A stretch of DNA of 64,000 bases from NCBI GenBank assembly GCA_000091205.1, contig AP006485.2. The stretch is one strand, 5' to 3'. This document shows positions 1-62,640 of this stretch, piece by piece. The stretch is from Cyanidioschyzon merolae (lineage: Eukaryota). Both the position numbers and the translations under genes were made by a program. How positions within the stretch are numbered: position 1 is the stretch's first letter; every line of letters begins with the position of its first letter. The notes beneath the pieces were generated by a model. That model was not told the origin of the DNA, made no database searches, and worked only from the letters and a program-made list of their open reading frames with translations.

Positions 1-2420
1 TGGATCGCTGCGACCCGTCGGCGATGGTAACATCTACATCCCCAACGCCTACGAGTACCAAACCATCCTCAAAAAGCATCTATGCGTCAAACAAGGGCGC
101 TGCATGGGCACTGTATCCGTAGTGGCCTCAACGCATCGACCAAGAGGCTTGTGCGTCAATAAAAAGGAATTTCTGGTGAGTCGCTGAAGGCGAGCGGCGG
201 GCTGGTGATGGAAGCGCTCGACGTGCTAGCGAGTCCCGATGAGATATTGCAACGAGAGCGGCATTCACCTCGTATCGTCTAGGCTCGTGGTGTTGCTGTG
301 GGCTTGGCATCGACGCGTGTCGTACACATGGGATATTTGAAACGTAGTGCCTGAATTCCTCGCATCTTGCGCCTCTCTGTTTCCCTGAACAGAGGTCTGC
401 AGAACGATGCATATGATTTCCCCAAACCCGGGCGTCCAAGTCTGCTCAAACGCTGATTCGATGTGCTTCCCACGTATCGTAACAAGTCCTATGGTGTAAA
501 CGAATACATTGGTGTACTGGAATGTATGGCCTGTTCAGTGAGCGACGGCTGATCGCTGAAGGCAAATCCGAAGTACTCGAACGGCTTCACGAAGCGCATT
601 GTCCGAGGCCGGTAAAGATTTCTCGTTTACAAGGAGAAAACGGATAGAAATCTGCATAGAGCATGCACGCCTACAGCATATGCATCTATGTGTACTTTGC
701 GAGACCTAGGCATGAGTTGCGCGGAATGGACTAATTTGCAATCGTTCAAAGCAAATGAGAAGAAGGATTTTGTGGTGAGCATGGCTCTCGTGCCGACAAA
801 CATCATGGCCGACGTCGTCCAGCTAAATCAAGGCTCGGGTGACCAAGGCCTGAATGGAAAGCACATGAAGCAGTTCAAAGATTCTGAAGCTCGTTATCAT
901 TCGAAATCGAGCACGGTGGAAGCCACGAGACTTTCCAGCAAGTGGAGCAATGGCACCAGGACCCATCTCGAAGCCCAGAGTATCATATCGCACAGAGACG
1001 GATGCTTCGTACTCGTCATTCAGAGCGTGCACGGGTGCTCAAGTGGCTCATACACACAATGTTTGGCGGGAGTACATGCGCTCGCTCTTCGGTCGCCAAC
1101 TGTTTCGACTATACCAAGACGACAATCGCGCTTTCGCCAGGTTTCTTAACGATTTCTAAAGAAGATACAGCTGAATATTCGGGTCGTTTAATGATGCCCT
1201 AGGGCGTTGAACGGGCTAGGTCGCGCAAACCCTGAACCCCTGCTCCTTCGACGAAATCGAGCACCGAGCGCAGGAAGCGGTTCTGCAGGATTCTCGTCGA
1301 TGAAGTCCGGATGACGTTCACGGAACACGTGCACAAGTACATCTTGAAGCTGGCTCAGAAAGAGATCCTGAAGCAGAGCCCCATGCACGTATTATTGTAC
1401 GGTACGCTCATCAAACGTCTGACGGGGCGTCGATCGAAGGCACGCGTGTTGCCATGGATTCATATTATCAGCAGAAATGCGCAGAAGCACTTTCAGCACA
1501 GAGACGAGAACATCTCGATCAGCACTTGGGAATATCTCGGTCTTGCACAGCGCCAACCAGTTTCGTCGAGCGAATTTCCATGGGAATCGAATAGGACACC
1601 ATGTGAGGATGAACGCGAACGCTGACGGCTTCCAGTAAAAATATTCACTGGCGAGCATCGAGGGCATGTGATTCCCGCCTGGAGCAACGCCCCGGCGTGC
1701 CATAGCTCGGCATTCTCGCAAGACCAGAGCACCGATTCTACGCATCGGACACCAGCCTCTGGACAATTCCTGAACGAGTTCTGTGCTCCATTGTTCGGTG
1801 TTCTTGTGTATTGCCATGACATCTCCTGTGGAGTCGAATGCAGCAGCGCCACGGATGTGATCACTGTGAAGATCAACCTGCTTTTCCGCGCACAATCCTT
1901 CTCATTATTGCAAGAATAGAATCCTACTGCAACCGGCCTAGAGCAAGGATCACTAGTCCGTCAGCGGTGCCTGTTGCAAGCGTTGCACGAAACCCCGGCA
2001 GCAGCTGCAGCAGCGCCTGGGACACTCGAACTGCACGAACTTTTGCACCACCGCCGCCCCTATCAACGTACCTTACCGACTACTACGGAACTCTCTGTGG
2101 CGCACCTGAGACACGATCCTGGTCGCGTGGACGCCCTTCTAGAAGCATTCGATACCAGGACGACTCGCAAAACTCGGCGTATGGACCACAAAATGCCAGC
2201 GCCTCGAAATTACAGACTAGCGCATTGAGCTGAATCCGGTGCAGCGGCAGCATCAACGTCATATTGGTCCAGGCGTTGCTGCCCGCGCGACCTTGGTGTG
2301 AACGCGCGCTCCCAGTGCCCAAGTTTGCTGTGGACGCTTGACACTGCAGTTGTCTGCTGGGATTCAGTCGTATTGCACAGGTTGAACGGTTGAGAAGCAC
2401 ACACACTCGTCGAAACTGTT

Positions 2421-4379
2421 ATGTCTTTGGAACGCTCTAGCGCACAACGGGTTGATGCTTTGCGCAAACTCCTAGCCGCTCGCGGACTCGATGCATACCT
2501 GGTCCCTTCGGAGGACGCGCATGCCTCTGAGTACGTTGCAGCTTGTTTCCAGCGGCGGGCATTTCTGACCGGATTCACGGGCTCCGCTGGTACTGCAGTC
2601 GTTACGCGCGACCGAGCTTTTCTCTATACTGACGGGCGCTACTTTGTGCAGGCGGAACGGGAGCTCGACCCCAACGTGTGGGAACTGAAGAAACATCTCA
2701 TAGATCCACCGATGGAAGAGTTTTTGGGCACTGTGCTGGCTTCCGGATCGCGCTTGGGGTTTGATCCCGAGACGCTTTCCATCAGTGCCTTCAACAGGCT
2801 GCGCAAAGCGCTGCAGCAGCACGGCATTCACCTGGTTCCTGTTACGAACGAACAGGACGGCACGGAGAGCGCTAGCACGCGCTGCAATTTAGTGGACCTT
2901 GTATGGGGAGCCGCCCGACCAGCGGAACCTCGCTCCGTCGTTTTTCCGCATGCGCTCTGTTTTGCTGGTGAGACGGCAGCGAGCAAGGTGAGCAGGGTCC
3001 TCAACGACATGGCGAAAAACCGGGTGGACTGGCTTGTTGTTTGCGCACTTGATGAAATCACCTGGCTCTTGAACTTGCGCGGAAATGACATCGAATACAA
3101 TCCGGTTTTTCTGGCGTATGTGCTCTTACATCGACGCGCTGTCTCTGAGGCCGAAAACGAGCCCGCTGGTGACTTGTACCTGTATACCGAGCAGGAGCGC
3201 CTCAACGCTGAGGCACGCGAGGCCCTCAAGGCCCTGAAAGCTCATCTAAGGCCGTATGAGGCTATCGCCACCGACCTGGAACAGCTCATCGCTCTGGGGG
3301 ATTGTGTCTGGTATGATCCGAGTCATACGAACTGTCTTATTGGACAAAAGCTCCATCTCGCGGAGTTCAGCGAAGCAACCCTGGACAGCAACCCTGCATC
3401 CGCCAAGCATGCAAGGCATTCAATTTTGGCAAAGGCAACCCCTATCGGCCTGTTCAAAGCTCGCAAGAACGAGACGGAGCTGGCTGGTATGCGCGCTGCA
3501 CACCTGCGGGACGCCGTGGCGCTCTGTCGCTTCCTGGCGTTGCTCGAGCACAAGCTCGTCGAACAGGGCACCACAATAAATGAGATGGAGGCTGCCCAGC
3601 TCCTGGACGAGTTTCGATCGCAACAGGAGCATTTTGTTTCACCGAGCTTTCCAACGATTTCGAGTGCTGGTCCGAACGCTGCGGTTATTCATTACAGGCC
3701 GTGTGCGGAGAGCGCTCGACCGATCACGAGGGATGCGATCTATCTGGTCGATTCAGGAGGTCAGTATCTGGACGGCACTACCGATGTGACACGAACGCTG
3801 CACTTTGGCACGCCTACCGCATTGGAGCGCGAGTGCTTTACGCGCGTGCTCAAAGGCTACATCCAGCTGGAGCAGGCATGCTTTCCTCCGGGTACTACTG
3901 GTCAACAGTTGGACGTTCTGGCGAGGTTGCCGCTCTGGCTCATCGGCCGCGACTATCGGCACGGTACTGGACACGGCGTCGGATGCTTCCTGAATGTGCA
4001 CGAGGGCCCGCAAATGATAAGTCCACGGTCTTCTGCCGGTGAGACGCCCCTGGAACCCGGCATGACTGTAACGAATGAACCAGGCTACTATGAGAACGGA
4101 CGGTTTGGCATGCGATTCGAGAATGTTCTGCTGGTTGTCCCGAAGCTTCATCCCGATCACTGCATGGACCGGAAAGCATTCCTGGGGTTTGAAAACATCA
4201 CGCTGGTTCCAGTAGAGCGCAAGTTGCTGGATACCAAACTTTTGACAGAACAAGAGATCGCTTGGATCGATTCTTATCATCAGAGCGTATGGAAAGCTGT
4301 GGCGCCGCTTGTTGCGGATGACCCGTTAGCAACAAAATGGTTGCATCAACAATGTCGATCATTGCGGGCGACATGTTAA
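2421..4379 (+). CDS. Xaa-Pro aminopeptidase (aminopeptidase P, M24B metallopeptidase)
   Basis: 652-aa uninterrupted ORF. N-terminal creatinase-like region and C-terminal pita-bread domain with 'HGTGHGVGCFLNVHEGP' and 'NEPGYYENGRFGMRFENV' metal-ligand motifs typical of eukaryotic XPNPEP1-type enzymes. Confidence 0.9.
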   Translation: MSLERSSAQRVDALRKLLAARGLDAYLVPSEDAHASEYVAACFQRRAFLTGFTGSAGTAVVTRDRAFLYTDGRYFVQAERELDPNVWELKKHLIDPPMEEFLGTVLASGSRLGFDPETLSISAFNRLRKALQQHGIHLVPVTNEQDGTESASTRCNLVDLVWGAARPAEPRSVVFPHALCFAGETAASKVSRVLNDMAKNRVDWLVVCALDEITWLLNLRGNDIEYNPVFLAYVLLHRRAVSEAENEPAGDLYLYTEQERLNAEAREALKALKAHLRPYEAIATDLEQLIALGDCVWYDPSHTNCLIGQKLHLAEFSEATLDSNPASAKHARHSILAKATPIGLFKARKNETELAGMRAAHLRDAVALCRFLALLEHKLVEQGTTINEMEAAQLLDEFRSQQEHFVSPSFPTISSAGPNAAVIHYRPCAESARPITRDAIYLVDSGGQYLDGTTDVTRTLHFGTPTALERECFTRVLKGYIQLEQACFPPGTTGQQLDVLARLPLWLIGRDYRHGTGHGVGCFLNVHEGPQMISPRSSAGETPLEPGMTVTNEPGYYENGRFGMRFENVLLVVPKLHPDHCMDRKAFLGFENITLVPVERKLLDTKLLTEQEIAWIDSYHQSVWKAVAPLVADDPLATKWLHQQCRSLRATC

Positions 4380-9149: not shown

Positions 9150-9590
9150 TCGATACCTGTGCTCATTCGAAGGAATAGAGAATCCACAGGAACAGGATAG
9201 AGATGGAACAAGGGGATTCTTGGAGTTTGCCATCCCTGGTATAAACAAAAAACGAAAGAATCCTCTTCTCCGTGATCATCGAGCGAAGAAGGGCACCTGA
9301 CGCAGACGAACGCGAGGAACAGGTGCGTTCAACCAGCGACAACGAACGTGTGGAGCTCGTGATCCGACACTTTAACGTCGTCATCAATAGCAGGAGATGT
9401 ATGGCGTTGAAGACAAGACCCGAGGAGCTGTGGCCAGCGAAATCTGTGGGGCAATCTTTCGGGCTTGACGTGTGTAGCGAGAAACCAAAGCCGATAGCAG
9501 TCGATCGGTCAAAAAAGACTGGTAGGCGTCTGTGCCTGGGTATCTAGTTACACTCCCGCGTTGCGGAACATGTTCGGTACTAGTGAACTG
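9150..9590 (+). pseudogene. C-terminal fragment of a TnpB/Fanzor-like RuvC nuclease (copy A; RuvC-III region, catalytic Asp replaced)
   Basis: ORF 9272-9547 '...ELVIRHFNVVINSRRCMALKTRPEELWP...KPKPIAVDRSKKTGRRLCLGI' aligns with the RuvC-III/C-terminal tails of the copies at 20.7, 29.3 and 61.6 kb ('RMEFVNRDFNAAINTRRC...', '...GGRSKNTGRRLRVG'). Truncated upstream by the tandem array. Confidence 0.55.
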
Positions 9591-20599: not shown

Positions 20600-21045
20600 G
20601 TGCGTTCATTTTCGAAAACCACTAAGAGATGAGCTTGGATATATACTCTAGGACGTCGAGTTGTAGAGAGAGGGATGCGCAGGGCTTCTGCGATAGACTA
20701 ATACGGAGAGCTGGCAGAGCACCAAGTTCCAATGAGGACGCGAGTTCGAGGAATCCCTGCACTGGTGAGAACAACAAGACGCATCAAACGCATGGAGGTT
20801 ATGAAGCGAAACTTCGATGCCACCGTCAACGTCAGACGATGCTTGGTGCTGAAGACGATACCCGAGGAGCTGACGCGATCTACCCCTGTGGGATGGCGTC
20901 TCAGGCTCGAAATTTGCAAGGAGAAACTGAAACAGATAGCAGACGGCGGGTCAATCAAAACCGGGAGGCGTCTGCGGGCCGGTATCAATTTACCTTCCAT
21001 GCTCGTGGGACATTTTTTGTTTCACTGACATGCAAAGTCACCGTT
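20600..21045 (+). pseudogene. C-terminal fragment of a TnpB/Fanzor-like nuclease (copy B) with an in-frame stop and a mutated RuvC-III Asp
   Basis: Frame containing '...TLGRRVVERGMRRASAID*YGELAEHQVPMRTRVRGIPALVRTTRRIKRMEVMKRNFDATVNVRRCLVLKTIPEELTRS...KLKQIADGGSIKTGRRLRAG' is collinear with copy D ('CTLQTVVLEGSQRGASAIEKYGELKQHQMALKARVRGQLALVSSTRGYKRMEFANQDSNAAINIRKC...'). The TAA stop at 20699-20701 replaces a Lys codon. Confidence 0.6.
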
Positions 21046-21569: not shown

Positions 21570-23819
21570 CTATGCATCATCATAGCGACAGATTTCGAGC
21601 TCAGGGTCAAAATAAGCGAGCCCAGCTGCCTCCAGGCGTTCTTGCTTCGCAGCAAGCCCCTTGATCCAGTTGTTGTGCAGGATCGCAGCCGCAGGGGCGC
21701 CCTGGTCCGCCCTGTTCTGCACCCAATACGTCCAGTTTGCTCCATTGCGAAAGACTCGCGGATCCAGAAAATGCGTATAGAGATCTCCATTGAAACATGT
21801 TTTGTTGTCAAGCCGATATTCACCGTGTTCTCCGCAGAGCACATCGTAGAATGATGGCTGCTCTGAGAGCTGCGAAGAAGCGGCATGCTCCAGGATGCGA
21901 CTCAAACCTGTCACCGTTGACGCAGAGCTTACCGCGTAATAGAAACCAGAATTCAGGCGACGTATACCGTTCCACGCCTGGTCCGGATCCGGCTCATTAC
22001 TCTGGAACCACACGCTCCGACCGCTGATGTTCGGTGGCGCAGCGTCGCGTGCCCGCAGCAGCTCTGGACGAACGTCACGAAACCAGGTAATATCGACATC
22101 ACTCCAGAGGACGTCATGCCCCCGTCGTAATATCTCATACACGTGTCGGGACTTGAGCTTCGAGCGGTGCCGAAAACAGGCGCTACCGAAAGCGCACTGT
22201 AGCGAATGTCGATATTGCGAATCGATTAGGGCTGGTTCCAGGTACACAGCCAAGCCTCGTGCATATGCGTATCGATAGAGGTCTTCGTCTAGCGCAGCGA
22301 CAAGCAATTTGTGAATGCGTAAACGACGCAAATTACAGACAAAGTTCATGAGCAGGAAGCGATACTCGTAGGTTGCGGCAGTCATGATCACAAGATTGGT
22401 CATCGGATCCACGACCTCCTTCAGCAATGCATCCAGCTGATGAGCAAGCTTGCCCTGAAGCGGCAGGCGGTAATCGCCAGCCTCTTCGAGGCTGCGCGAG
22501 CCACACTGCCACCATTTGTTCTCGCGGAGCACTGGATCCGTTTGTGTTCGAGGTGCAGTATTGCTGTACTCGCAGAGGCAACGCGCTGGGAAACGACGCT
22601 GTATCACACAGTACTCGTGTTCCAGGCACGGAACCAGTTTGAAGGGCGCGTGCAGCGGTGTGCCCAGTTGGCTTTCATAGGATCCGTATGCCAGCGCCAA
22701 ATGAACATTCAGAAAAGCCTCCCACGAGTGACGTTTGTTGTTCGTCCAAAAATTCCCACTCGTCGACGCATCCTCAACTTGAAGATGTGGATATGCGTGG
22801 CGAACGTGAACCAGTGTGGCGGCCTCCGTGATGTCCACAGTGAGGTTCCAGCGACGCGTCTGCAAGATTTCATGAAAGAGCCAATTATCGTACTTACCTC
22901 GGCCGAAAACGAAGCTCGGAATCCGCACTCCGATCACAGACCGATTTCCGGAGCTTGAAGCGTCGCTATCCAGCAAGTCCTGATACGAGCGCAGCGACCA
23001 TGCGAACAGATCAATGCCTCCGTAGCTGTGCAGTGTGCCGTGTTCCTGTGCGAAGGCCTCTCGGCTGTTGCCCGGGTGCAGGACGTCGACGTCCCATCGT
23101 GCGGCAACAGCGAAAAATTCCGGTGACAAAGCCAAGAGTTTTGCGAATATTTGCGGCAGATTCCGCGGCAGGTGCACGTCGGCGTTCACCAGAAGCCCAA
23201 CTACCAGCCTTGCCGATGCACCGAGACCTCGTAGTGCCAGTCGCGGTTGCAGCGCGAATGCACGATGTACCATTGCGTTGAAAAGCGGAACACCCCGGAA
23301 GTTCACGTCAATGTTGCAATCGACTGTCGCATTCCAATGGTGTGCAAGCTGCTCCAGACCTGGATCGCAGCCCTGAAAGACGATTTTGGGTGTTGGTTCC
23401 AGGTCCATCCAGGATGCAATGGCCTGTGCCTGACGCGATATCTCCGAAACTTGCGCATCCGGCCTCATGGTGGTGAAGATGACGAGTTGCGGCAGGAGCT
23501 GTGCCTCCTGCGCATGCTCGTCGCCTACACTGGTCCTATTCCGCGTCCTGGCTTGTTCGAGGAAGTTTTCCGTGGTCTCCTTGGGTGACTCCTTGCCATC
23601 CAGAGATAGGAGAGCGTTTCGCTCCGCTAGTTTTTGTCGTTGTCGCGGCATAGTTATCCAAAGGCAACCCCAAAGCACTAAACCTAGCATAATAATACCA
23701 GTAAGACGACGCGGGCACAGCCTATACCGTGCAGAACGGAACCACTTGTGCTCGGAGTGCTCACGGCAGGTGAGCAAACCCCTCAAAGCCGCTTCCCGAG
23801 CACGCGAACTCTTCGACAT
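21570..23819 (-). CDS. Type-II membrane glycosyltransferase with nucleotide-diphospho-sugar transferase (PF03407-like) domains; the ORF is open up to 24233 but the start at 23819 is preferred
   Basis: Long ORF. After 'MSKSSRAREAALRG...' comes a single TM helix 'GIIMLGLVLWGCLWI', then 'VIMTAATYEYRFLLMNFVCNLRRLRIHKLLVAALDEDLYRYA' resembling arabinosyltransferase-like nucleotide-sugar transferase domains, and a second related C-terminal domain. The longer 24233 start would overlap the divergent neighbour. Confidence 0.5.
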   Translation of the reverse strand: MSKSSRAREAALRGLLTCREHSEHKWFRSARYRLCPRRLTGIIMLGLVLWGCLWITMPRQRQKLAERNALLSLDGKESPKETTENFLEQARTRNRTSVGDEHAQEAQLLPQLVIFTTMRPDAQVSEISRQAQAIASWMDLEPTPKIVFQGCDPGLEQLAHHWNATVDCNIDVNFRGVPLFNAMVHRAFALQPRLALRGLGASARLVVGLLVNADVHLPRNLPQIFAKLLALSPEFFAVAARWDVDVLHPGNSREAFAQEHGTLHSYGGIDLFAWSLRSYQDLLDSDASSSGNRSVIGVRIPSFVFGRGKYDNWLFHEILQTRRWNLTVDITEAATLVHVRHAYPHLQVEDASTSGNFWTNNKRHSWEAFLNVHLALAYGSYESQLGTPLHAPFKLVPCLEHEYCVIQRRFPARCLCEYSNTAPRTQTDPVLRENKWWQCGSRSLEEAGDYRLPLQGKLAHQLDALLKEVVDPMTNLVIMTAATYEYRFLLMNFVCNLRRLRIHKLLVAALDEDLYRYAYARGLAVYLEPALIDSQYRHSLQCAFGSACFRHRSKLKSRHVYEILRRGHDVLWSDVDITWFRDVRPELLRARDAAPPNISGRSVWFQSNEPDPDQAWNGIRRLNSGFYYAVSSASTVTGLSRILEHAASSQLSEQPSFYDVLCGEHGEYRLDNKTCFNGDLYTHFLDPRVFRNGANWTYWVQNRADQGAPAAAILHNNWIKGLAAKQERLEAAGLAYFDPELEICRYDDA

Positions 23820-23860
23820 AACCCTTCGGTGGGAGCTGCTCTTCTGCACCACCGAAGCCT

Positions 23861-25288
23861 GTGTTGTCGCTTTTGAGCGCAAGTCCACAGAGGGCTCATC
23901 GACAAAGCGTCCCCTACCATACTCTCCGAAACGAAGCCGAAGCATACAAACAGCAACGTTGCGCCCATGACAGCTGGCCCCCCGAACATTTGAACGGGAA
24001 ACCGCAAGATTATCTGCGGTACAACACGAGCCAAGCTGCTGGCTCTGTGGGTATAGGACGCGTACCAGAGACTCCCATCGAACGCGAATTTGTAGCTGAT
24101 GCCCCGACACTTCTACGGAGGATGGACTCACACCCCCAAAATACCAGCGATGACGATGATGACGTTGAACATGTTTACATTGTGAGTAGCCCGGAAGCGT
24201 CCAGTGAAGAAGAGGGCTGGAACTTGCCAGCACCTGACGCCAACGCTGACGACGCTGTCGCGGTGCTACGAGGGCACTCCAGTGCAGTATACGCTGTAGC
24301 GATCACAGGTCAGGATGAGGTGGTGATTTCTGGAGGAGGCGATGATCGAGCGCTGGTCTGGGTGCAGCCCTTTTCAGAGGCACCGCGGCTCCTCGGCGAC
24401 TTTCATGACAGCGTCAGCGCTGTGGCGCTTACAGGATCGCGCTTAGCGCTCGGCACACTGGCGGGCGAACTACAAGTACACTGCACCCAGCAGCTGACCG
24501 AGCGCACCGAAGGAGAACAACTCGCACCGCCGCTGGCTCAGGTGGAAACTGATGTTGGCATCGAGTGCCTTCGAGGAAACAGCGAATTCTTCGCTGCCGG
24601 AACAGCGGATGGAGCACTCTGGGTCCTCGATGCGCTCTCTGGAGACTGCCTTGGGGTTGCTTACAATCACCAAGGCGCCATTAATTCGCTCGCTTTCGTC
24701 CAAGATGATACGAATGTGTCTACGACGAGCCTATTGGTGACGGCCTCGACGGATGGCACCGTGCGTTTATGGGGACCTCCGTCGCACGGCACCGTCCCGT
24801 GCCTATACGCAATGGATGGGGTATTTCACGACGCTCCTGTACTTTCGTTGGCAAGTTTTCGGGACGTGGTGCTCAGCGGCGATGAGGCAGGTCGATCGTT
24901 TCTAGCGAACTGGCGAACTGGACGTGTCTTGTGTCCGTTGAGCCAGCAGCACCAGGGGAGCGTGGAGAGTGTCGTCGCTAGTTCCGAGTTTCTGGTTACG
25001 GGCGGATCAGATGGATTTCTTCATGTGTATACACCAGATGCACGATACAGAATGAGCTTTCAGCATCGCGATGTCGTCGTTGTGGTTCGGGAAACGAAAC
25101 GATGGTCCCAGTGCTTTGTTTCTGCGTCCGTCGATCAGACAGTGTGCCTTTGGGATTTACGTTCTGGTGCCGAGCCAGTGCGATGTTGGCGTGGTCACTG
25201 CGACGCGATTCTGACCATGGATATCGGAACGGAGCTGATCGTTACCGGGAGCGACGATGCTACGGTACGATGCTTTCCTCTGCAGTAG
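23861..25288 (+). CDS. WD40-repeat protein, AAMP (angio-associated migratory cell protein)-like; likely true start near 24122 (MDSHPQNTSDDDDD...)
   Basis: Acidic N-terminal tract then WD repeats. 'GGDDRALVWVQ', 'AAGTADGALWVLDALSGDC' and 'TASTDGTVRLWG' parallel AAMP 'GGEDDKAFVWR', 'LAGTADGNTWMWKVPNGDC'. Confidence 0.65.
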   Translation: MLSLLSASPQRAHRQSVPYHTLRNEAEAYKQQRCAHDSWPPEHLNGKPQDYLRYNTSQAAGSVGIGRVPETPIEREFVADAPTLLRRMDSHPQNTSDDDDDVEHVYIVSSPEASSEEEGWNLPAPDANADDAVAVLRGHSSAVYAVAITGQDEVVISGGGDDRALVWVQPFSEAPRLLGDFHDSVSAVALTGSRLALGTLAGELQVHCTQQLTERTEGEQLAPPLAQVETDVGIECLRGNSEFFAAGTADGALWVLDALSGDCLGVAYNHQGAINSLAFVQDDTNVSTTSLLVTASTDGTVRLWGPPSHGTVPCLYAMDGVFHDAPVLSLASFRDVVLSGDEAGRSFLANWRTGRVLCPLSQQHQGSVESVVASSEFLVTGGSDGFLHVYTPDARYRMSFQHRDVVVVVRETKRWSQCFVSASVDQTVCLWDLRSGAEPVRCWRGHCDAILTMDIGTELIVTGSDDATVRCFPLQ

Positions 25289-25521
25289 AATGTCTGTCCT
25301 CCGGGGATTCCATAACTGGCTGCATGAATGTTTTATGACTTGAGCGCTGCCTATCTTGGACATGTACCTATAACTTCATGCTGCTTCGAATGCTGTTGGA
25401 CGCTATGCATGGATACATGGATGCATCGGTGCATCCAGGGATGTATATCTGTGCCCGTGTTTACACTGGTGCACGTTCACAGTTGAACATCAACATCCAC
25501 ATGCTTGCTTCCATCTGCTTA

Positions 25522-26304
25522 TCATGATCGTTGGTCAGCATTTTTTCTCGGAGCATGCTGGTGGCGTCGACGTGCCCGAGGGCGCTCTGTCTCTCGAGCG
25601 AGACGCGAGAACATGAGCATGAGGCGCTCTGTGGGAACGCTCCGCTCCGCGCCGATGGACTGTGATCTTAACATGTCTCGAGGCACCGGCTTCACCAGTA
25701 CAATATCGTCGCCATCATCTTGGTTGACCACTTTCCATTCAGAGGGAACATCCGTTGAGTTGAGTAGTTTTGCAAGCTCTGCTTTTCTTATTTTTTGAAA
25801 AGCCATTTCAACGATACTGCAGATAAAGTTTCGGACGCCGAGGTCAAAGTCTACAATGGAATCGAGCAGTTGGCCCAGTGGCGTTCCATGGGCAGCTTCT
25901 TGGCTTCTCAACCTCCAAAACTGATGGAACTGACCAGTCTCAAGGAGATCCGCTAGTTCCACAAGTTTCCGAACCAGCTCTGACTGCTCGGTCGTCTGCT
26001 CGGTGGTTCGGGTGTCAAGCGGTTTCAGCAGGAAACGACAGCAAGTGGTAGCCTCTGAAGGCAGCACCATTAACGACTTGGCGAGGATGATGCCTTTTAT
26101 GTCGTCCTTGGCTCTATCGGGGTACAGCTGATACAGTTTTAAAGTAAGCAGGTGTGTTGCAACGTCGTGCACTGCGAGGCCACCGGCCGCGTCTAACCGT
26201 ACCCGGGCTTCCAGCTCCTCGAGGCGTTGTGGGTCGTAGCGGCTGCCCCAGGGATACGTGCTCTGGGATTTCTCGATGAAAGTCACGTCCATGTGTACAG
26301 CCAC
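25522..26304 (-). CDS. EIF3K: Eukaryotic translation initiation factor 3 subunit K (eIF3k)
   Basis: 260-aa ORF. 'RYDPQRLEELEARV', 'LLTLKLYQLYP', 'LADLLETGQFHQFW' and 'VRNFICSIVEMAFQ' correspond to eIF3k 'RYNPENLATLERYV', 'LAVLKLYQFNP', 'LGDLLETCHFQAFW' and 'VRKFICHVVGITYQ'. Confidence 0.75.
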   Translation of the reverse strand: MAVHMDVTFIEKSQSTYPWGSRYDPQRLEELEARVRLDAAGGLAVHDVATHLLTLKLYQLYPDRAKDDIKGIILAKSLMVLPSEATTCCRFLLKPLDTRTTEQTTEQSELVRKLVELADLLETGQFHQFWRLRSQEAAHGTPLGQLLDSIVDFDLGVRNFICSIVEMAFQKIRKAELAKLLNSTDVPSEWKVVNQDDGDDIVLVKPVPRDMLRSQSIGAERSVPTERLMLMFSRLARETERPRARRRHQHAPRKNADQRS

Positions 26305-27289
26305 AGAAAGGCAAGAAGAGCGTTGTTTCTAGGCAAACGTAGTGCTGAACGTCGACGGCAGACCGGATTGGTTTGGCGATTTCTCACACAATCACGAAAC
26401 GTTTCCATGAACCGTAGACCCCAGAATGCGGGATGGATGGGTATTGGTAATCGAAAAAAAGTGCACATCATGCTACTGCACCAAGTTCTATTATTCATAC
26501 TTGCTTTCGAATGTGCTGGTCGTTTCGTATGTTCTATCGCGCGCCGAGTGCCTGCTGTGAGCAGCCGCCTTAGCGCCTAGACCGCTGGAACAGATGCATC
26601 ATGGAGACAAGACGGCTTTGCCGTACCAGTGAGGGCGTCGGATCGAGGAACGCTTCACCTGATACGGAGCCGGAGTACATGGTCATTCTGGGCGCTTGCA
26701 AGCTGCGCAGACAGAACGACTGCCTGCAGAAGCTCGAAGCGATATGCTAGGAGTCTACTGCGACCAGCGCGATGCTCAGAAGCAGCCGAACCGCCGCTAG
26801 TCCCAGAATGAAGTGTGTTGCGGACGAGCTGCTCAGATCTCATTACAACATCCTCCACTTTAGAGGCACACGGAGCATGAGCCACGCAGACTCGTCCGGC
26901 TTGCGGGACCTTCCGCCTGTATGGTAAAATTTTCGAAATGCGGATAGCGCTCCCCCATGCAACGTTTACCATATAGAGGAGAAGAACCTGTCCTATCGTT
27001 GTTATTTAATGGTTCGTTTCTGTTCATGGTTCTGTATAGCATATTCGATACGCGCACCTCCATGTCTGGCAGGCATGAGATGCGGCGCGCGTTTCGCAGT
27101 GGAAGAGAAACGCGATCCTCATCGTTATCATGTTGCTCTAAAGTACAAGGTGTCTTTGCGTTGCAGTCGTACCGAACCATAGATTTCAATTCAGTTGTTT
27201 TTCAACCCTCAAGCAAGTATATTCAAGTGATTTCTCGCGGTTTATAGCTGAAGCGTTCAACGTGTGTTCATTTTCAAAAAATAAAAAAG

Positions 27290-29480
27290 GGAAGTTAGCG
27301 AAAAGCAAGTTGAGGATCCCGAAGGGCTTGTGCCGCCGGCTGCCAGAAGAATAAAAAGCATGGCGGAGCAAAGAGCAACAGGAAAAGACGAAGAAGCAAG
27401 AGAAGGAGGCCCTACGCCAAAGGCTGCAAGAAAGACGACACTGCGACGGAATGGTGCTGGAAGCCTGTCTTCTTGGACATATTAATGATCCATACTAGGA
27501 AAAGTTGCGAGAGGCCATCAGAAACCGGACCGAGTCGTTCTCCAGGAGGATTATAAAGTCTTCGTCAGGGCTAATGCATTTGGTGAAGGATATGTACGAA
27601 GACGTGACGGACATCAAAAAAGTCGAGATTGCAGAAGAATTTTGCGACCAGGCCTTTATTCCTCACCTGATGCTTGGCACCGGGGAAACGTCGACGAAAA
27701 ATGAGCGAGTGTATGCCTTCCATGAAAATCACTCCGAATTCCGCTTCGACGGTACTCGACACATGCCTGACTCGAATATTTACACGTACGGAGCAATGGA
27801 GGGCCTCACGAACCTGAAGAACCATATGATCGTGAACCTCGAACGTTTCATGATACGCACCATGTTTGCGCTGAACCCCGGCCTTTCTCGCCAGTGGATA
27901 CGGGCCATCATCAATGGCATCAAGAACGCTCGCCAGAATGGACAGGAGATCGAATTCGTCGACAAAAAGACATCACACAGGAGCATGAATAATGCTTCTG
28001 TAATTCGTGCGGCTATTCAAGAGCATCGTGCGGTCTTGGGGCTTGTCAAATCCAGCTTAAACGGTATCAGATATGAAAAGAAAATGAAGAGAAACGGTAT
28101 ACCCTCGTACTGTAGTATTCCGTGTTTCTGAACAGAGACCTCGAACGCAAGGCGGAGATCGAGCAGAGTGTGAGGAGAAAAATGAAGAGTCAGCGAAACG
28201 GAACGCTGCCCTAATGGGTAAGCGCTTCAATGTCGTTCCGCTATGCAACATCGAGTCAAATGTTGTGACAGTTGGCCCGCTACGTACTTTACAGCAAAAT
28301 GAAGGAGATCTATCCGGACTTCGATGTAAGCAGCAACGAGTTTACGGGCGAAAACCGGGAGACGTACTGGGTGAATATGTTCGATTTCAAACGTCTGAAA
28401 ACGAGCAAACAAAAGTTATTTACTGAGGTGATCGAAGCCGATGGAGCAGCCGTGTGTGTACACGATCGGCGCTTGAAAGTGGATCGTCCCATTGCATCTT
28501 CATGCTTCGCCGTCGGCGAGGCATAAAGAAAAAGAGGAGGCGGATCCTGCGACGCATGCGGTGCAGGATAAAGACTTTGTTGTTGGCGCGGACCCTACGA
28601 ACACGAATATTGTTACCGTCGCTGTACCCAAACATGCGGAAGATGGTATCAACGGCAACTTCAGAAACACATGCGTCTGTTGAGGCTCTCAAGAGCTAGA
28701 GGTTACCGAGAATGCGGTATAATGAATGCGAGGAAAAAAATTGAGAAGTGGAATGCAGGAATGAAGGATCGCCTGGAAGCTATGAGGGAGGTGACGAGCC
28801 GAGAAGCGGGCTTTGAAGCTTTTATGAAATTCATGGAAGTTCGCGTGGCTCACTGGGAGGCGCTGTGGAAAGAGAATACAAAGCCCCAGTGGGCTCGTCT
28901 ACGTATGAACCTGTACCGTAACAAGTAGCATGCATTCGCGAATTTTTTCAATGAGTTGAGTGCCCTGAAGGAGGACGAGAGACAGAGGCTCGTAATAGCA
29001 TGCGGAGCAGGGCGCTGGAAGACCCAAAAAAGCGAGTGGACCAGCTCCAACGACGATGGTGTACAAGTAGTGCGCAACGCGTTTCATTACGATACCTGTA
29101 GATGAGTTTCGAGCATCGTATACGCACCATGAACTGGGATGCACACTTCAGAGAGTGGAGATGGAAAAGTGTCAGAGAAGACCTTGGGATACAGAGAAGT
29201 GCGGAGAGCTGACAGAGCAGCAAACGTAAAGAACGGCGAAAGTTCGTGGACTCCATGCATTAGTAAGTACAACCAACGGCAAGCAACGTATGGAGTTTGT
29301 GAATCGCGACTTTAACGCAGCAATCAATACCAGGAGATGTGCGGTGATGGAAAGAAGACCTCCGGAGTTGACAAGAGAGAATTTTATGGACAACCTTCTA
29401 CGATGGAATTAGATGAGGAAAGTTGAAACCAGTAGTAGGTGGCCGGTCGAGAAAAACCGACAAGGCGTCTGCACGTCGCC
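27290..29480 (+). mobile_element. Most complete copy (C) of a TnpB/Fanzor-like RuvC-nuclease element; coding region is fragmented (pseudogene)
   Basis: AT-richer block in a GC-rich region. Collinear frames 27505-28131, 28272-28526, 28492-28683, 28671-28928 and 29030-29400. RuvC-I-like 'FVVGADPTNTNIVTVAV' lies at ~28576-28625 and RuvC-III 'RMEFVNRDFNAAINTRRC' at ~29290-29340; between them is a C-rich segment 'ELGCTLQRVEMEKCQRRPWDTEKCGEL' (possible zinc-finger remnant). Several frameshifts/stops split the reading frame. K/R-rich N-terminal peptide 'KAARKTTLRR' at ~27360. Confidence 0.65.
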
Positions 29481-30247
29481 CTAAAGGCTTCCACGCTATC
29501 GGCGTGACGTATGTGCGTTCGTATACCCGTTTTCCGGGTGGCAGTTCCCGCGCACAACGTTTCGCTTGTAGCGCCGCGACTCGAATGCCGCGGTACACGA
29601 TACGGAGTCTACTCGTGTTGGGTTGTGCTTCTTTTGCTATTTACCAAACATCGGCTTCGAAGTATGAGCCTGATGGTCGCGAAAGTATAAGATCGACTCG
29701 ACAAGCGCCCGAAAGAGGGCACAGGACGCGAGCGTCACCTGAACCAGCGAACCACAGAACCGGACAGGGAGCGATCTTGTCTGCTTTGCTGAGCACTAGT
29801 ACTGAGGGCACGTTATCGAGTGCAACGAACAGTGTAGAAGGACTGCGTATTGGTCTTACGAATCAAACGGAGGCTGCTCTTGCCAGCGTTACGCCCGTGC
29901 TGCAGCCTGATGCTGCGGAACTCGAGAACGCGTGCACTTTTCAAGCACCAGAGTTGAGCGCCTTGTCCGGAACGTCAAGTCTCATGGAAGACCTGAGCAC
30001 TGGAGCGGACTCAGTTGCCGGCACTGACAATGACAGTGATCGTTCAGAACAGATGACGCGAAACAAAATTAGAGACCGCTCGTGGTCGTTGTATCGTCAC
30101 CTGATGGATCCACCAGTTGCATCGGAGGTAGGCGTTGCAACTCCCCGTTTGCGTCGCCGCATTGGGCCGAATCCGCAGGCAGTAGGAGTCAACCCCCTTG
30201 ACTCAAGCGGCGAACGTAACGAATGCAGGGCGATGGCTCCGTCCTGA
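29423..30247 (+). CDS. Hypothetical Ser/Thr/Ala-rich ORF (274 aa); its first ~25 codons overlap the frameshifted tail of the Fanzor-like copy C
   Basis: ORF only. The start region 'KPVVGGRSRKTDKASARRPKG' is homologous to the C-terminal tails of the other Fanzor-like copies ('KLKPIAGGRSKNTGRRLRVG'), so the 5' part is element-derived. No recognisable domain. Confidence 0.2.
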   Translation: MKPVVGGRSRKTDKASARRPKGFHAIGVTYVRSYTRFPGGSSRAQRFACSAATRMPRYTIRSLLVLGCASFAIYQTSASKYEPDGRESIRSTRQAPERGHRTRASPEPANHRTGQGAILSALLSTSTEGTLSSATNSVEGLRIGLTNQTEAALASVTPVLQPDAAELENACTFQAPELSALSGTSSLMEDLSTGADSVAGTDNDSDRSEQMTRNKIRDRSWSLYRHLMDPPVASEVGVATPRLRRRIGPNPQAVGVNPLDSSGERNECRAMAPS

Positions 30248-31017
30248 ATCGAGGCTCGGGATGGATACGGCTTTGGGAGTTGAGCACTTCTGCCTCCGCA
30301 AGCTGCCGTTCACGCGCGACTTGACATGGTTCGACGGCGCTGCTTGCTCACGCGTTCAACGAAGCGCGACTCGAATGATCGTGCAGGTCGCGGTCATGGT
30401 CTGTCGCGTTCCCTAAACATTTAAAAGGACGTGACGCATTGCCCTGTCGTGAATATGCTGTCCCAATGGTCTGCTCTAGGTCTATCTGTCGGCATGTCTC
30501 TCTTGCTACGAATACGGATTCGTCCTTGAGGCATCGCACGTGCGTCGCTTGAGACCCGAAGCCATTGAATGCAAGAGCAATATCCCTATCTTTTCAGTAG
30601 GCTTCTAGAACTGCAGAAAAAACTCGCGTCCGATACGATGGATTGGGCGGAGCGGTTGCAAATCCTCGAAAGCGGAAGACTTTCGTGTCCAGTGCAACAA
30701 TCCTGTGATGGTGGACGCGTTCATCCCAGGCCGCTGCTTTCACACCATTGTCCTGAATTTTCCATGTTCATGTTCAACTCCTGTTCAACTTAAAATCTCT
30801 TTGAAACTCCCCAATCAACGCTGAACCCTTGATGCTCCGTGATGGAGACCACGGATTCGCTCTACTCAAGGCAGCAACGACCGACATGGAAGTGAGCGCA
30901 GCCAGCGCAGTCGCCACTGCACCAGAATGTCGGATAGCGTTCACAAATCGCCAGGCTGTCGCTCTGCCCGAAACCGATACGGCACTTGCGCGTGCACCAG
31001 GTCCGCGACGCCTGGAA

Positions 31018-31145
31018 TCGATTTTTTTTTCATTGACAAAACGTTTCCATTGGCCAGCGTTCTCCGATTATGCGCATTTTCCTTTTCTTACTTTTTTGTG
31101 TTATTTTTTCAGTGCACTGTGAAGTATCTATCAAACACCCTACCT
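31018..31145 (-). repeat. Diverged, inverted dispersed copy of the 135-bp repeat unit
   Basis: The reverse complement of 31028-31125 ('cttcacagtgcactgaaaaaataacacaaaaaagtaagaaaaggaaaatgcgcataatcggagaacgctggccaatggaaacgttttgtcaatga') aligns with the tandem unit core 'cgcgcactgaaaaaaaaagtaagaagagaaaaagcgcacaatcggataacgctggacaaagtaaacgtttattcagtga'. Confidence 0.75.
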
Positions 31146-31331
31146 CCATGTTCCATTACCTATACTTCGTCTCGGATATTCTGGACGTTTCATACGTCCT
31201 ATCGTGCGTGGGATCGATGCTGTGCATCCGCGGCTCGCCCGCGAATGAAGCGCGATCACGACGCGCGCATCTCATGTCCGTTTTGATCAAACGGCTATAT
31301 ATATCAGATTTGACGAATTTTCGGTGGCATT

Positions 31332-31424
31332 GCGGACGTGTCCGAGTGGTTAAGGAGAACGATTAGAAAGCGCCTAGATATCGTTTGGGCTCTGCCCGCA
31401 CAGGTTCGAATCCTGTCGTCCGCG
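31332..31424 (+). tRNA. tRNA-Ser (anticodon AGA) with an ~11-nt intron 3' of position 37
   Basis: GCGGACG/CGTCCGC acceptor stem with discriminator G. D-loop 'GAGTGGTTAAGG', anticodon stem AACGA/TCGTT, loop T-T-AGA-A then the extra 'AGCGCCTAGAT'. Long variable arm GGGC-TCT-GCCC. T-arm 'ACAGGTTCGAATCCTGT'. TATATATA lies ~35 bp upstream. Confidence 0.8.
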
Positions 31425-33599
31425 CATCATTGTTTTTATTCGATACGTGTATCTGCCCTTCTTGTACAAAACAAATCAGCGGATGAAACGCGTATGGCAG
31501 GCATGCACCAATCGGGGTACCGCCCGGCGCTAGGCATCAAAAAGGACTCGAGCGGGGCCTCGCGGCGGACGAGCTCGCCGAGCGCGACACCCGCTGCTGG
31601 ATGCAGCGCTCCGAAGCTGCAGCAGCGCACGAATACGCTGTCTGTATTCGGTAGGCATGGAATATTGTACCGCTCAGATGGTTTCTGCTTTTCGACTTTT
31701 TCCGCTCTTTGCCACAGATGCACAGCGTCGACGTTGAACGCGCTGCTCTTCTGGCTTACGGATTCATTCATTGTTTGGGATTCTCGGTCGTTTATTTTCT
31801 CGGAGTCGCTCTGCTGCCCTTGGCTGGAGGGATTCCTTACGTTACCGGAACCGAGATGAATCGTTACGTCCTCGAACAAGGATCTGGATACATAACCGAT
31901 ATCATGATGCAGTCCATGAGTACGATTGCGGACTCTTCTGCTTGACTCGTGTAGAGCACGTCCAAATCACGAATGCTTCAGCATTTCTATCTCTCTGGCT
32001 CGAGCAAGTCGTGGGCGCAGCAGTGCACCCCGCCGTATTGGCGAGGAAAACGCGTAGTGTCGTTCGTTGATGACTTGCTCACAAGCTCATGCCGAACGGT
32101 CACCGAACTCGTTACGTCAAATAACCGATTCCATTCGAAAGCCAAATTTTCCTCTCTTCGAGATCATCCCTGAGACGGCACTCGGCAGCAGCACGGTAAT
32201 GCGCTAGAGGTATGCTTCAAGAGGCTCCCGTCTCTTCTGTTTACGTGGGGCAGTGGACTTTTTCCGGACCGCGGTCATCGCAGCTATCGCTTCCAATCGA
32301 CAGGGCGCAACCGCTTTGCATGAAGAGAGCGTAGACGATTCGACATTCCCTGACTTGCTGTCCCGCCCGGAATTTCGTCCTGGTACGCACTTCATTATGG
32401 ATAACAGCGCGTTCGATGAATCCTCTGTCGGGCGGCACAACAAATGCTAGCGTAAACGACGGATTCGGTATGCACGAGGCGCGGTTGCACAGAAAAAGCA
32501 GGGGATCCGAGGATGAAGCATCCGGCGCAATAGCGATGGAGAGAAGCGAGGTTAGCCTTCGCAACTAGCTACACGTATGCGTCGAGCGATGAAACAATCC
32601 TGGAAGCATGGCACGGGCGGTGCTGTAGGAAGGCATTGTGATGGGCATTCAGGAACACCTGACCACAGTTACTTGTAACAATTACGAAGGGCGCAACGAG
32701 GCTGCACGCGAACAAATTGAAAATACCAAGCACGGGTCCTAACCTCCACCTGTGCATGCAACGAATCGACAACAGCAGGATGCTGCGAAATCAAGACTTG
32801 CACAGGGCAAACGATACATTCGATTGCCGACAGTGGAGCTGGCGTCACCGGAGTGACCGACTTATGTTAGGCACGATACTAGAGAGAGAGAGCAAAAGGA
32901 TTCAGTTGCAGAAAAAACCGACACAGGCTTTTTCTCATGATAATAGTACAACCACCAGCGTTCACAATCGACGCCCGAACTCGCCGAGCGGACCTCTTCC
33001 ATGCAATGCGCTTATGAATGTACTCATGTTCGGCGCGCGAGGCCCCGATTCAAAACAGGAGCTTTCAAGTCGCTTTTCGATACCTGATTCGCCCCCGAGA
33101 TGGACCTGAAGTCACGTGCCTCTCGCGACTTTACTGCTGCATCCCAGCAATCGCTCCTCCAAGCGGTGCGTATCGCAAATCGACTCTGCACAGAAGGCGT
33201 TTTTGCACCCTTGCCCCTTTGCGTACGGGAACGCTCGCCTCTTGGCATCCTGCGCGAACGCCTCCGGACTCCTGGGCGTACACGTTTGCTCCGCGTTCCA
33301 CTGCCACGAGTCTGAAGCACCACCAAAGCCAAAAGCTGAAACACATCCATAACGAATATGACGTAGCGAGATCGCTTGCGAGATGCACAGCGTACCTGTA
33401 CCGACTTGTGCAAACAAGCCTGGCGGCGTCGTGGTGCACTGCCTCGGCACGCGCGTCCTCGAGCCGACGCCCTCTGTATTATAGAAAAGCAGTTCTGCCC
33501 TGGTGCAGCAACCGCACCGGCGCTATAGACGCCATTGCGGTCGCGTTCGGCAGGCACTAGGCAAAAGATAGGACGTATCAAACGATCAGACTATCCGAG

Positions 33600-33760
33600 A
33601 AGAGGTTTAATTCATGTAACTTGGACGAAGAGGGTTTGATGGATACCTCACCGTGCACTGGAAAAGAAAAGAAAAGAAAGAGCGCATCATCTGAGAACGC
33701 TGGCCTAAGTAAACGTTTTGTCAATGAACGTGAAAAATCGCTTGGGGCACCGCCCTGCAC
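33600..33760 (+). repeat. Diverged dispersed copy of the 135-bp repeat unit, overlapping the predicted 5' end of the downstream ORF
   Basis: 'ggtttgatggatacctcaccgtgcactggaaaagaaaagaaaagaaagagcgcatcatctgagaacgctggcctaagtaaacgttttgtcaatgaacgtgaaaaatcg' aligns with the tandem unit at ~70-75% identity. Confidence 0.75.
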
Positions 33761-50231: not shown

Positions 50232-50731
50232 TTTTTGACATTTTTCGTGTGCTGTGGCATTCAAGAATCCATGTCTCTTCAACGCAACGAGCCGCGCATC
50301 CACGTCTCAGTGAACCCATGCTTTCCCGGACGAAGATATCCATCGCACAGTCTGGGATCCCTGGCCTGTTGAAATGCTCTGTCAAACAACACCGTGCGCT
50401 AGCCTCTCATCCGAGAGTCACTTTGTTCCATTGCACGCGCACACTTGACTCGCCCTGAGGCAGCTGCTGTGTGCGGCTATGTTGCGGCGTCATAAACGCG
50501 CTTCATGCGACATCTCTCCTCGTGGCAATCATTCAACAGCAATAGCGTTTGTTTGTATCGCAGAAAGCGTTTCAAACAGATTCTAGTGACTTATGGACGC
50601 CAGGAGCACCCTATATCTCGGATGCATAGAGCCTTATGTATCTAGGAATGCGCTGCAGTGCCTGCTTCTTGTACCAGCTGGGTGGTGATCGCGAATATCA
50701 GAGCACTACGGGACACTTTTGGGGACGCGGC

Positions 50732-61429: not shown

Positions 61430-62640
61430 TATCAGTGAAACAAGAATCTTTTCACGACCATGGAGGGTAAATATATCTACCCACGCGCAGACGCCTCCCA
61501 GTGTTTTTTGACCGGCCTCCTGCTATAGGTTTGAGTTTCTCCTTGTACACTTCGAGCAGCAGAGGCTGGCCCACAAAGTTCGCTCTTGTCAACTCCGCGG
61601 GTCTCTTCTCCGGCACCAAACATTTCCTGATATTGATAGCAGCGTTGGAGTCCTGGTTCGCGAATTCCATGCGTTTATAGCCTCTGGTTGAACTCACCAA
61701 TGCAAGCTGTCCTCGAACTCGCGCCTTCAGAGCCATTTGGTGCTGCTTCAGCTCTCCGTACTTTTCTATCGCCGAAGCGCCCCGCTGGCTGCCCTCCAGC
61801 ACGACCGTCTGAAGTGTACACCCAAGCTCACCCCCTGGATTTTTTACTTTTGAACATGGAAGCGCATCTTCGAGGCCTAGGGTGGGGACCTTCCCGAAGC
61901 GAGAAGGTCTTGTGGAAGAAAGTCGACATGTGCCCCCAGGCTCACCGTGTACTGAATGTTTCAGCGATTCGCCCAGTGGAGTGATCATTACTTTTCAGAA
62001 TACAAAAGACTCCTTCTATGGGGATGAAACACAGAGTCTTCCGAGTAATGAAAAGCAGCTTTGCCCCGACAGAATTCGCATAAACTCGAACGCGTATGGG
62101 CTCGCGAAATGCCATGTCGTTCAATAGTAGAAAGTTGCCGGATGTAAGAGGAAAAGTCTTCAATGATTCGACAAATTGGGTGCTGTTGTATGAACCTTCT
62201 TTACGAGCGGAACTGAGGCCGCCGAAGGAATGCATTCCAGCTTGAACAGATGATGATACCCATGTTCTCTTCAAGCTCGATCGTGCATTCCACGGGCTGC
62301 CTGCTCTACGAATACCAATATACGCCTCGACTGTTTCATTCGAAGCAAGTCTCATCCACTAAAATAACAAACTGACGCTCCTCTGCTTTATTAGCCTCGC
62401 GAAGTACCAGGAACACCGTCGTTAAAATATCGGTGGAAGATGGCCCTGAATGGGATTGGACTTTTTTCGACTGTATCTAGTGATTGCATGACCGCAAGAA
62501 CATACTGTTCAGAAACAGAAACGCCCGTGGTGGCAACTACCTCGCTTTTGCTGCCTGCAATGTGATCAACGAGTCGCCTTCTAATACTCACCCGCAAGCG
62601 GTCTTTGAGAATCCCGGTTTTCGGCAATGAGCGCATCTAT
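61430..62640 (-). pseudogene. TnpB/Fanzor-like RuvC nuclease copy D (3' half is one 178-aa ORF with intact RuvC-III Asp; upstream frames are broken)
   Basis: ORF 61452-61988 '...LGCTLQTVVLEGSQRGASAIEKYGELKQHQMALKARVRGQLALVSSTRGYKRMEFANQDSNAAINIRKCLVPEKRPAELTRANF...KLKPIAGGRSKNTGRRLRVG'. Upstream ORFs 61942-62355 and 62391-62636 are in other frames. ~75% nt identity to copy C over the RuvC-III region. Confidence 0.6.

Follow-up and report, generated by a model that had tools for sequence, protein, structure and literature searches.

A Decayed Copy of the Fanzor1 Element CMe-1A in a Nuclear Spacer of Cyanidioschyzon merolae

We report on a stretch of 64,000 nucleotides from chromosome 3 of Cyanidioschyzon merolae 10D (contig AP006485.2), referred to here as the window, and on the decayed element that lies at positions 26391-29477 within it. 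This element is almost certainly a single fixed, neutrally decaying copy of CMe-1A, a family that lacks terminal inverted repeats (TIRs) and whose sole gene encodes the Fanzor1 protein CMe-1. Fanzor proteins are the eukaryotic relatives of the bacterial RNA-guided nuclease TnpB. By sequence comparison the family is not new: its consensus and its protein have been known since 2013, and the window copy is one of about 150 decayed copies. The locus itself therefore matters little, and the repeat should be masked. What goes beyond the 2013 description concerns the family as a whole, namely a clade without a zinc finger, a candidate 3' RNA, modular 5' ends and near-intact copies in the wild. These leads are starting points toward compact or thermotolerant eukaryotic RNA-guided nucleases.

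Results

The Element Is a Copy of CMe-1A

CMe-1A was described by Bao & Jurka (2013; Mobile DNA 4:12; PMC3627910) as the single Fanzor1 family of C. merolae. The same authors reported a consensus of 3169 bp, with about 150 copies that are each about 80% identical to it, and a 5' segment of 635 bp that is the same as TE-N2_CMe, a repeat in its own right. They found no TIRs, and a target site duplication (TSD) could not be determined. The encoded protein, CMe-1, has 734 amino acids and was classed under Fanzor1; a few copies were still intact, and purifying selection on the protein was argued for.

We took the consensus DNA and protein from the supplementary files of that paper. When the consensus was compared with the window by blastn, it aligned at 82.9% identity over 3103 columns with 21 gap openings, and a global alignment of the window copy to the consensus gave 83.1% (coordinates of all features are collected in Table 1). 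At about 17%, the divergence of the window copy from the consensus agrees with the published figure of about 80% identity. The window copy thus shares with CMe-1A its species, its degree of alignability (about 80% published, 83% observed), a TE-N2_CMe-like 5' module and the lack of TIRs and of a TSD. It differs in being inactivated and in missing the final 80 bp or so, and nothing else sets it apart. Homology ends at window position 29477, which is consensus position 3089; the remainder of the consensus is missing or replaced here, whereas most environmental copies keep it. No transposase open reading frame (ORF) lies inside or next to the element, and we found neither TnpA nor a serine recombinase there.

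An earlier, sequence-only reading of this DNA had described the element as an AT-richer block of about 2.2 kb at 27290-29480. The compositional part of that description holds, with a GC content of 0.445-0.505 across 27000-29400 compared with 0.53-0.58 in the flanks, but the extent does not, as the repeat unit spans 26391-29477. The element begins about 900 bp to the left of the reported start because that start was the start of the ORF, at the former ATG at 27297. Homology to an intact environmental copy, L001, begins at 27045. The same reading had valued the window copy as a near-full-length template for reconstructing the family; none is needed, the consensus and the 734-aa protein having been published in 2013.

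The Coding Region Is Disabled

We used the consensus ORF (consensus 906-3110) as a reference for scoring lesions. The pieces of the protein are collinear on the plus strand and scattered over all three frames, just as the collinear but frameshifted ORFs of the sequence-only reading had implied. The start codon at 27297 has changed from ATG to AGC. Relative to the consensus there are 13 frameshifting indels, the frame changes being caused by indels of 1, 2 and 4 bp, as well as one in-frame deletion of 3 bp, and six sense codons have turned into stops (27496, 28058, 28113, 28926, 29068 and 29227). A second alignment of the window copy counted 14 frameshifts and 7 stops. On either count, with the start lost, the copy is a pseudogene, as had been proposed. 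Its repaired translation remains 72% identical to the published CMe-1 protein.

Two RuvC motifs had been recognized in this sequence from its letters alone. The RuvC-I-like motif, FVVGADPTNTNIVTVAV, is present, about 10 nt from its estimated place at 28576-28625, and the RuvC-III motif, RMEFVNRDFNAAINTRRC, lies essentially where it was put, at about 29290-29340. Between the two is a RuvC-II-type motif, PVDEFRAS, which had gone unnamed and which contains an "alternative" catalytic Glu; the canonical RuvC-II strand upstream of it reads VIACGAG in the window and has no Glu. The Cys-rich segment said to intervene is not there, the family having just 2 Cys in the stretch from RuvC-II to RuvC-III. 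That all three catalytic codons are still present in the window copy is due to chance. Because the ATG is gone, there are about 14 frame breaks and 6-7 stops, and the 3' 80 bp are missing, this copy is incapable of Fanzor function; it is inherited as ordinary junk DNA in an unannotated spacer.

A Deep Profile and a Structure Model Point to Fanzor1

To query protein collections we used a stitched 639-aa translation of the window ORF pieces. This returned 68 homologues from a collection of metagenome and genome proteins, the best of which, P0001 (752 aa), matched at E = 6e-220, covering 99% of the query at 53% identity. The sole annotation of these homologues was a domain of unknown function (PF26935, DUF8286). 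We then turned to a deep profile, A4, built from 126 proteins of the clade and including distant relatives. In the PDB this profile matched exactly three sequence groups, all of them Fanzor1: PpFz1 of Parasitella (9cf0, E = 4.1e-19), SpuFz1 of Spizellomyces (8gkh, E = 3.8e-12) and GtFz1 of Guillardia (9cer, E = 2.8e-3). PF07282, the Cas12f1-like TNB family, was seen in distant members at a sub-threshold E = 6e-4. A full HMMER scan found 3415 cluster representatives at E <= 1e-3, and the clade is therefore large. Those of its members that carry a species name come from green algae and include proteins of Chlamydomonas euryale and Chlamydomonas sp. UWO 241.

An AlphaFold2 model was built on the A4 alignment for P0001, which is a near-intact relative and not the window pseudogene itself. 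The model had a mean predicted local distance difference test score (pLDDT) of 83.4 and a predicted TM score of 0.81. Foldseek searches of the PDB with this model gave seven significant matches, and each of them was a cryo-EM structure of a Fanzor1 (E = 5e-15 to 4e-13), with target-normalised TM values reaching 0.70 and alignments spanning 760-887 columns, gaps included. Cas12 and Cas12f were matched only at E >= 0.02. The structure prediction that the sequence-only reading had recommended thus yields, in a relative of the window protein, a predicted Fanzor1 fold, bilobed with REC/WED and RuvC/TNB parts. Its assignment to Fanzor in preference to bacterial TnpB is also borne out, as the profile matches and the significant fold matches in the PDB were all to Fanzor1.

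The active site agrees with this placement. The RuvC-I Asp (in G-x-D-P-G) is present in 125 of the 126 clade members, the alternative Glu (in D-E-F-R-T-S) in 124 and the RuvC-III Asp, in a nearly invariant R-D-x-N-A-A, in 123. The canonical RuvC-II strand of the clade is A-Y-G, without a Glu. A rearranged catalytic Glu has been reported for all Fanzors (PMC10530073), and a triad that uses the alternative Glu and lacks the canonical one corresponds to that rearranged site.

Comparison with characterised systems brings out both kinship and distance. SpuFz1 (8GKH, 9CEU-9CEZ), PpFz1 (9CF0-9CF3) and GtFz1 (9CER-9CET) match the CMe-1 clade in fold over their full length, and characterised Fanzor1 proteins share its rearranged triad, with the Glu in D-E-[FY]-x-T-S. 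Sequence identity to them is nevertheless merely 12-15%, and SpuFz1 and PpFz1 have in their TNB region a CxxC...CxxC zinc finger that the CMe-1 clade is without. With TnpB (IS200/IS605, for example ISDra2) and Cas12f, CMe-1 has in common the RuvC fold and R-D-x-N-A-A, but the fold match is weak (E >= 0.02), CMe-1 has a much larger N-terminal half and another residue in place of the canonical RuvC-II Glu, there is no TnpA and the host is a eukaryotic nucleus. Fanzor2 proteins, of IS607 type (for example ApmFz2 of mimivirus), are eukaryotic or viral TnpB homologues that also have a rearranged Glu; CMe-1A differs from them in having no serine recombinase, and no Fanzor2 appeared among the 50 best fold matches listed.

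RNA-guided cleavage by Fz1 has been described (PMC11423790). An intact CMe-1 protein follows the Fanzor1 architecture, with REC and WED lobes, a split RuvC and a TNB domain, and its active site is formed by the Asp of G-A-D-P-G, the alternative Glu of V-D-E-F-R-T-S and the Asp of N-R-D-x-N-A-A. By homology with SpuFz1, GtFz1 and PpFz1, it would take up a structured RNA made from the 3' end of the element and, guided by the adjoining flank, cut matching DNA beside a short target-adjacent motif (TAM). Such cleavage might favour retention or spread of the element.

P0001 carries three extra tandem copies of a unit of about 75 bp that is single in the window, at 28514-28590. The repeat (L001:11223-11450, residues ~389-469) encodes 24-25 aa, KHEEKKEADPxTQEVQDNDxIVD, and is modelled at pLDDT < 50; within the unit of P0001, the beginning of the RuvC-I strand is repeated in degenerate form.

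A Candidate RNA at the 3' End

In TnpB elements the guide RNA is encoded at the right end. In the CMe-1A family, the last 125-140 nt or so of the element, overlapping the tail of the ORF, share a conserved layout: three hairpins sit inside a long closing stem (AGUAGU..GGC / GCC..ACUACU), and a terminal hairpin comes after it. The latter occurs in two sequence versions, UCGUUCGA-CUUU-UCGAACGG and ACGUUUUUC-UUUU-GAAAGGCGU, and reaches beyond the last position of the published consensus by 10-20 nt, where, for example, '...GGCGTTTGTTGTCGCTGCC' pairs back to 'GGCGACAACG' (examples are L026:6339-6485 and L073:2523-2660). The published 3169-bp consensus probably stops a little too early on the 3' side.

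We examined this fold in 44 distinct copies, where 89% of cells pair, compared with 38-65% when the partners are slid. Individual intact copies gave folding z scores of -2.7 to -4.4. The equivalent 125 nt of the window scored z = -0.5 because the 3' half of the structure is missing; what survives has lost the terminal hairpin and the strand with which it would pair on the 3' side. For this analysis the alignment had to be cut down to its last 140 columns or so, RNAalifold on the whole 459-column 3' alignment being uninformative (-2.5 kcal/mol) and a naive all-against-all pair scan being dominated by noise. The fold of the 3'-terminal 125 nt or so is suggestive, and only suggestive, of a candidate omega-RNA. 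In being short (about 125-140 nt), placed at the extreme 3' end and overlapping the ORF tail, the candidate differs from the RNAs of characterised Fanzor1 elements.

The Copy Is Fixed and Decaying in a Family Whose Protein Is Under Selection

A metagenome scan returned 411 relatives, from a handful of JGI samples. The neighbours of L001, the near-intact copy that encodes P0001, are at least 90% identical to the C. merolae 10D proteins BAM82338 and BAM82337, implying that the environmental genomes are Cyanidioschyzon. The majority of copies carry some stops or frameshifts, and at least 2 of the 12 environmental copies examined closely are near-intact. Over about 70 copies, conservation at codon positions 1, 2 and 3 was, for example, 0.895, 0.937 and 0.799; the higher conservation of the first two positions argues for purifying selection on the family protein. 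The window copy itself has a ratio of nonsynonymous to synonymous codon changes, relative to the consensus, of 2.1, and the ratio was 1.1-1.8 in 11 of 12 other copies. The window copy appears to be unconstrained.

At the orthologous site, located through eIF3k, the same dead copy is present in at least 10 environmental contigs (L082-L091, corresponding to window ~22000-33000). We looked in these contigs for an empty site between eIF3k and CMC108C, the genes that flank the element, and found the insertion in all 10. The orthologous element copies are 97.8-99.7% identical, compared with 98.8-100% for three flanking coding sequences, and the remnants of the ORF are strain specific: the ORF at 28671-28925 encodes 85 aa or 68 aa. 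Judged by its presence across these contigs, the window copy is an old, fixed relic.

Modular 5' Ends on a Constant 3' End

Upstream of consensus position ~645, the copies L002-L081 carry 5' modules of at least four unrelated kinds, TE-N2_CMe among them. These modules join the Fanzor core at nearly one point, and the 3' end is constant. In many environmental copies the TE-N2_CMe-like module is absent or another 5' module takes its place. This 3'-anchored pattern, a constant 3' end with many 5'-truncated copies, is compatible with copying from the 3' end. Together with the swapped modules it hints at nuclease-driven, 3'-anchored copying, by homing or gene conversion, in place of a classical transposase.

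In copies of the long class, a T-rich, TTTC-like sequence stands directly 5' of the left end. It belongs to the TE-N2 module and may mirror the target preference of TE-N2 itself.

Discussion

Several points weigh against reading the element as a decayed copy of a Fanzor1 transposon. The ends of the window element show neither TIRs nor flanking direct repeats of the kind a TSD would leave. Neither the stitched translation, searched against Pfam and the PDB sequences, nor a shallow 12-sequence profile of the family, searched against the PDB, gave a match; the link to Fanzor1 comes into view only with a deep profile or a structure model. No clade member of the 126 has a CxxC between RuvC-II and RuvC-III (0-3 Cys in total, over the region of P0001 residues 656-725 in the A4 alignment), and the C4 zinc finger forms part of the Fanzor/TnpB signature (PMC3627910). 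Compensatory changes support only 5 of the 37 pairs of the 3' fold, and its covariation score was reached by 7 of 500 shuffles. Finally, we infer the RNA-guided nuclease function of the CMe-1 family from characterised Fz1 proteins.

Two of these points bear on tests that the sequence-only reading had set for itself. A hidden Markov model search with the repaired translation does fail when that translation is used alone, but it succeeds through the 126-sequence family profile. The Fanzor pseudogene was recognised from two short motifs where single-sequence Pfam and PDB searches fail, and because such searches fail on this relic, negative results of this kind on similar relics do not amount to refutation. 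Likewise, a missing zinc finger had been named as a sign that the motifs were accidental. The C4 finger is indeed absent, yet in the alignment it is lost across the whole clade, which makes it a trait of the clade and not the mark of a chance match, and the TNB domain is still modelled in P0001 and aligned to Fz1 structures despite the absent finger.

The idea that non-coding DNA produced the RuvC-like motifs by chance, which the lack of any Pfam or PDB match to the stitched translation might encourage, has in our judgment nothing left to it: the E = 6e-220 match to intact homologues extends over 99% of the query, and the DNA is 83% identical to the consensus over 3.1 kb. It is nearly as hard to credit that the gene is intact, with introns mistaken for frameshifts at a functional locus. 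Fanzor genes have acquired introns in many eukaryotes (PMC10530073), and the window pieces are collinear. However, six stops replace conserved sense codons within blocks that align well (for example CAG to TAG in '...LYCGKQRAF...' at 28926), and the ATG has become AGC. The breaks are indels of 1-4 bp relative to an uninterrupted consensus ORF, with no inserted segments; one continuous ORF runs through the consensus and through each near-intact copy, and GenBank has no gene in the spacer. A bacterial IS200/IS605-type TnpB, brought in by contamination or recent horizontal transfer, seems to us just as implausible. It could draw on the D...E...RD-x-NAA signature, which TnpB and Cas12 share, and on the weak matches to PF07282 (E = 6e-4). 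Yet the element sits between nuclear genes of C. merolae on a chromosome record of 481,791 bp and occupies the same site in many environmental Cyanidioschyzon contigs. In addition, the strong matches are all to Fanzor1, the named relatives are green algae, there is no TnpA and the canonical Glu is absent.

Exaptation of the relic, as a promoter or other regulatory sequence for eIF3k or CMC108C or as a non-coding RNA, would explain its fixation and deserves slightly more weight, though we still regard it as very unlikely. The element ends 99 bp from the eIF3k ATG (26292-26391) and 108 bp from that of CMC108C (29477-29585), so that both promoters must be located within the relic or on its border, and the copy is present in 10 of 10 environmental contigs. 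Against this, the element has diverged by 0.3-2.2%, compared with 0-1.2% in the flanking sequences, which are coding and not intergenic, and indels accumulate differently between strains, as in the 85-aa and 68-aa versions of the ORF. What is left of the candidate RNA scaffold is cut short and has lost its fold (z = -0.5), and in a clonal alga old insertions are expected to become fixed by drift. A fixed, neutrally decaying copy of CMe-1A accounts for these observations.

A separate matter is whether the lineage as a whole is a still-active, zinc-finger-less Fanzor1 of thermo-acidophilic red algae. We consider this possible, although the odds are against it; the near-intact copies, the conservation by codon position, the possible compact omega-RNA and the 3'-anchored pattern are what speaks for it. 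If it is true, the family would offer a eukaryotic RNA-guided nuclease that is adapted by nature to heat and acid and whose TNB domain is unusual.

Host Locus and Other Remnants in the Window

Table 1. Positions of the CMe-1A copy, its parts, related remnants and neighbouring genes in the window
Feature	Position	Strand	Remarks
Whole decayed CMe-1A copy	26391..29477	+	Consensus positions 3-3089 of 3169
5' module, equivalent to TE-N2_CMe	26391..27027	+	Consensus ~1-635, from alignment
Non-coding leader of Fanzor core	27028..27296	+	Consensus ~636-905, from alignment
Disabled Fanzor1 (CMe-1) coding region	27297..29477	+	Codon comparison with consensus ORF
RuvC-I motif FVVGADPTNTNIVTVAV	28566..28616	+	Catalytic Asp codon 28581-28583
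RuvC-II region PVDEFRAS	29096..29119	+	"Alternative" catalytic Glu codon 29105-29107
RuvC-III motif RMEFVNRDFNAAINTRRC	29287..29340	+	Catalytic Asp codon 29308-29310
Surviving 5' half of 3'-terminal structured region (candidate omega-RNA scaffold)	29430..29477	+	57 3' ends aligned
5'-truncated 3'-end fragment, CMe-1-related subfamily	61479-61940	-	
5'-truncated 3'-end fragment, CMe-1-related subfamily	20642-20977	+	
5'-truncated 3'-end fragment, CMe-1-related subfamily	9323-9544	+	
Fragment of TE-N2_CMe-like 5' module only	33456-33625	-	
Fragment of TE-N2_CMe-like 5' module only	31139-31208	+	
Fragment of TE-N2_CMe-like 5' module only	50320-50364	-	
Second, much older Fanzor1 relic	11-1562	+	Runs off left window end
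eIF3k (BAM79036)	25525-26292	-	Left neighbour of element
CMC108C (BAM79037)	29585-30244		Right neighbour of element
tRNA, 93 nt (intron-length)	31332-31424		Rfam match

Seven window ORFs, including both genes that flank the element, agree exactly with C. merolae 10D proteins; for an eighth, a 10D protein is found within its 90%-identity cluster (matched accessions BAM79029, -30, -34, -35, -36, -37, -40 and -48-type). The eukaryotic nuclear context asserted in the sequence-only reading is thereby upheld, eIF3k, CMC108C and the other window ORFs being those of 10D and the tRNA being of intron length. The spacer between eIF3k and CMC108C measures 3.3 kb and contains no gene annotated in GenBank, as follows from the consecutive accessions BAM79036 and BAM79037. 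The element occupies nearly all of this spacer, and its neighbours are divergent or tandem genes. ARAGORN reported no tRNA in the window; since Rfam finds one of 93 nt, that negative reflects a limitation of the tool.

The window also holds a second Fanzor1 relic, much older than the CMe-1A copy. It aligns with the proteins P0069 and P0202 at 27-36% identity (aa ~170-678) and contains stops and frameshifts. Its RuvC-I Asp is lost ('VVSMALVPTN'), and the motifs 'VDEVRMT' and 'HRDENISI' are degenerate. Going by its sequence, this relic is too divergent for CMe-1A, the only C. merolae Fanzor family in PMC3627910.

Smaller remnants are of two kinds. Three 5'-truncated fragments of a CMe-1-related subfamily are 67-77% identical to the consensus at the DNA level and share, after a conserved 'GAGGCGTCTGC' block, a 3' tail unlike that of CMe-1A. 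Three others consist of TE-N2_CMe-like 5' module only, and one of these (31139-31208), with 90% identity, is found some 125 bp upstream of the tRNA gene.

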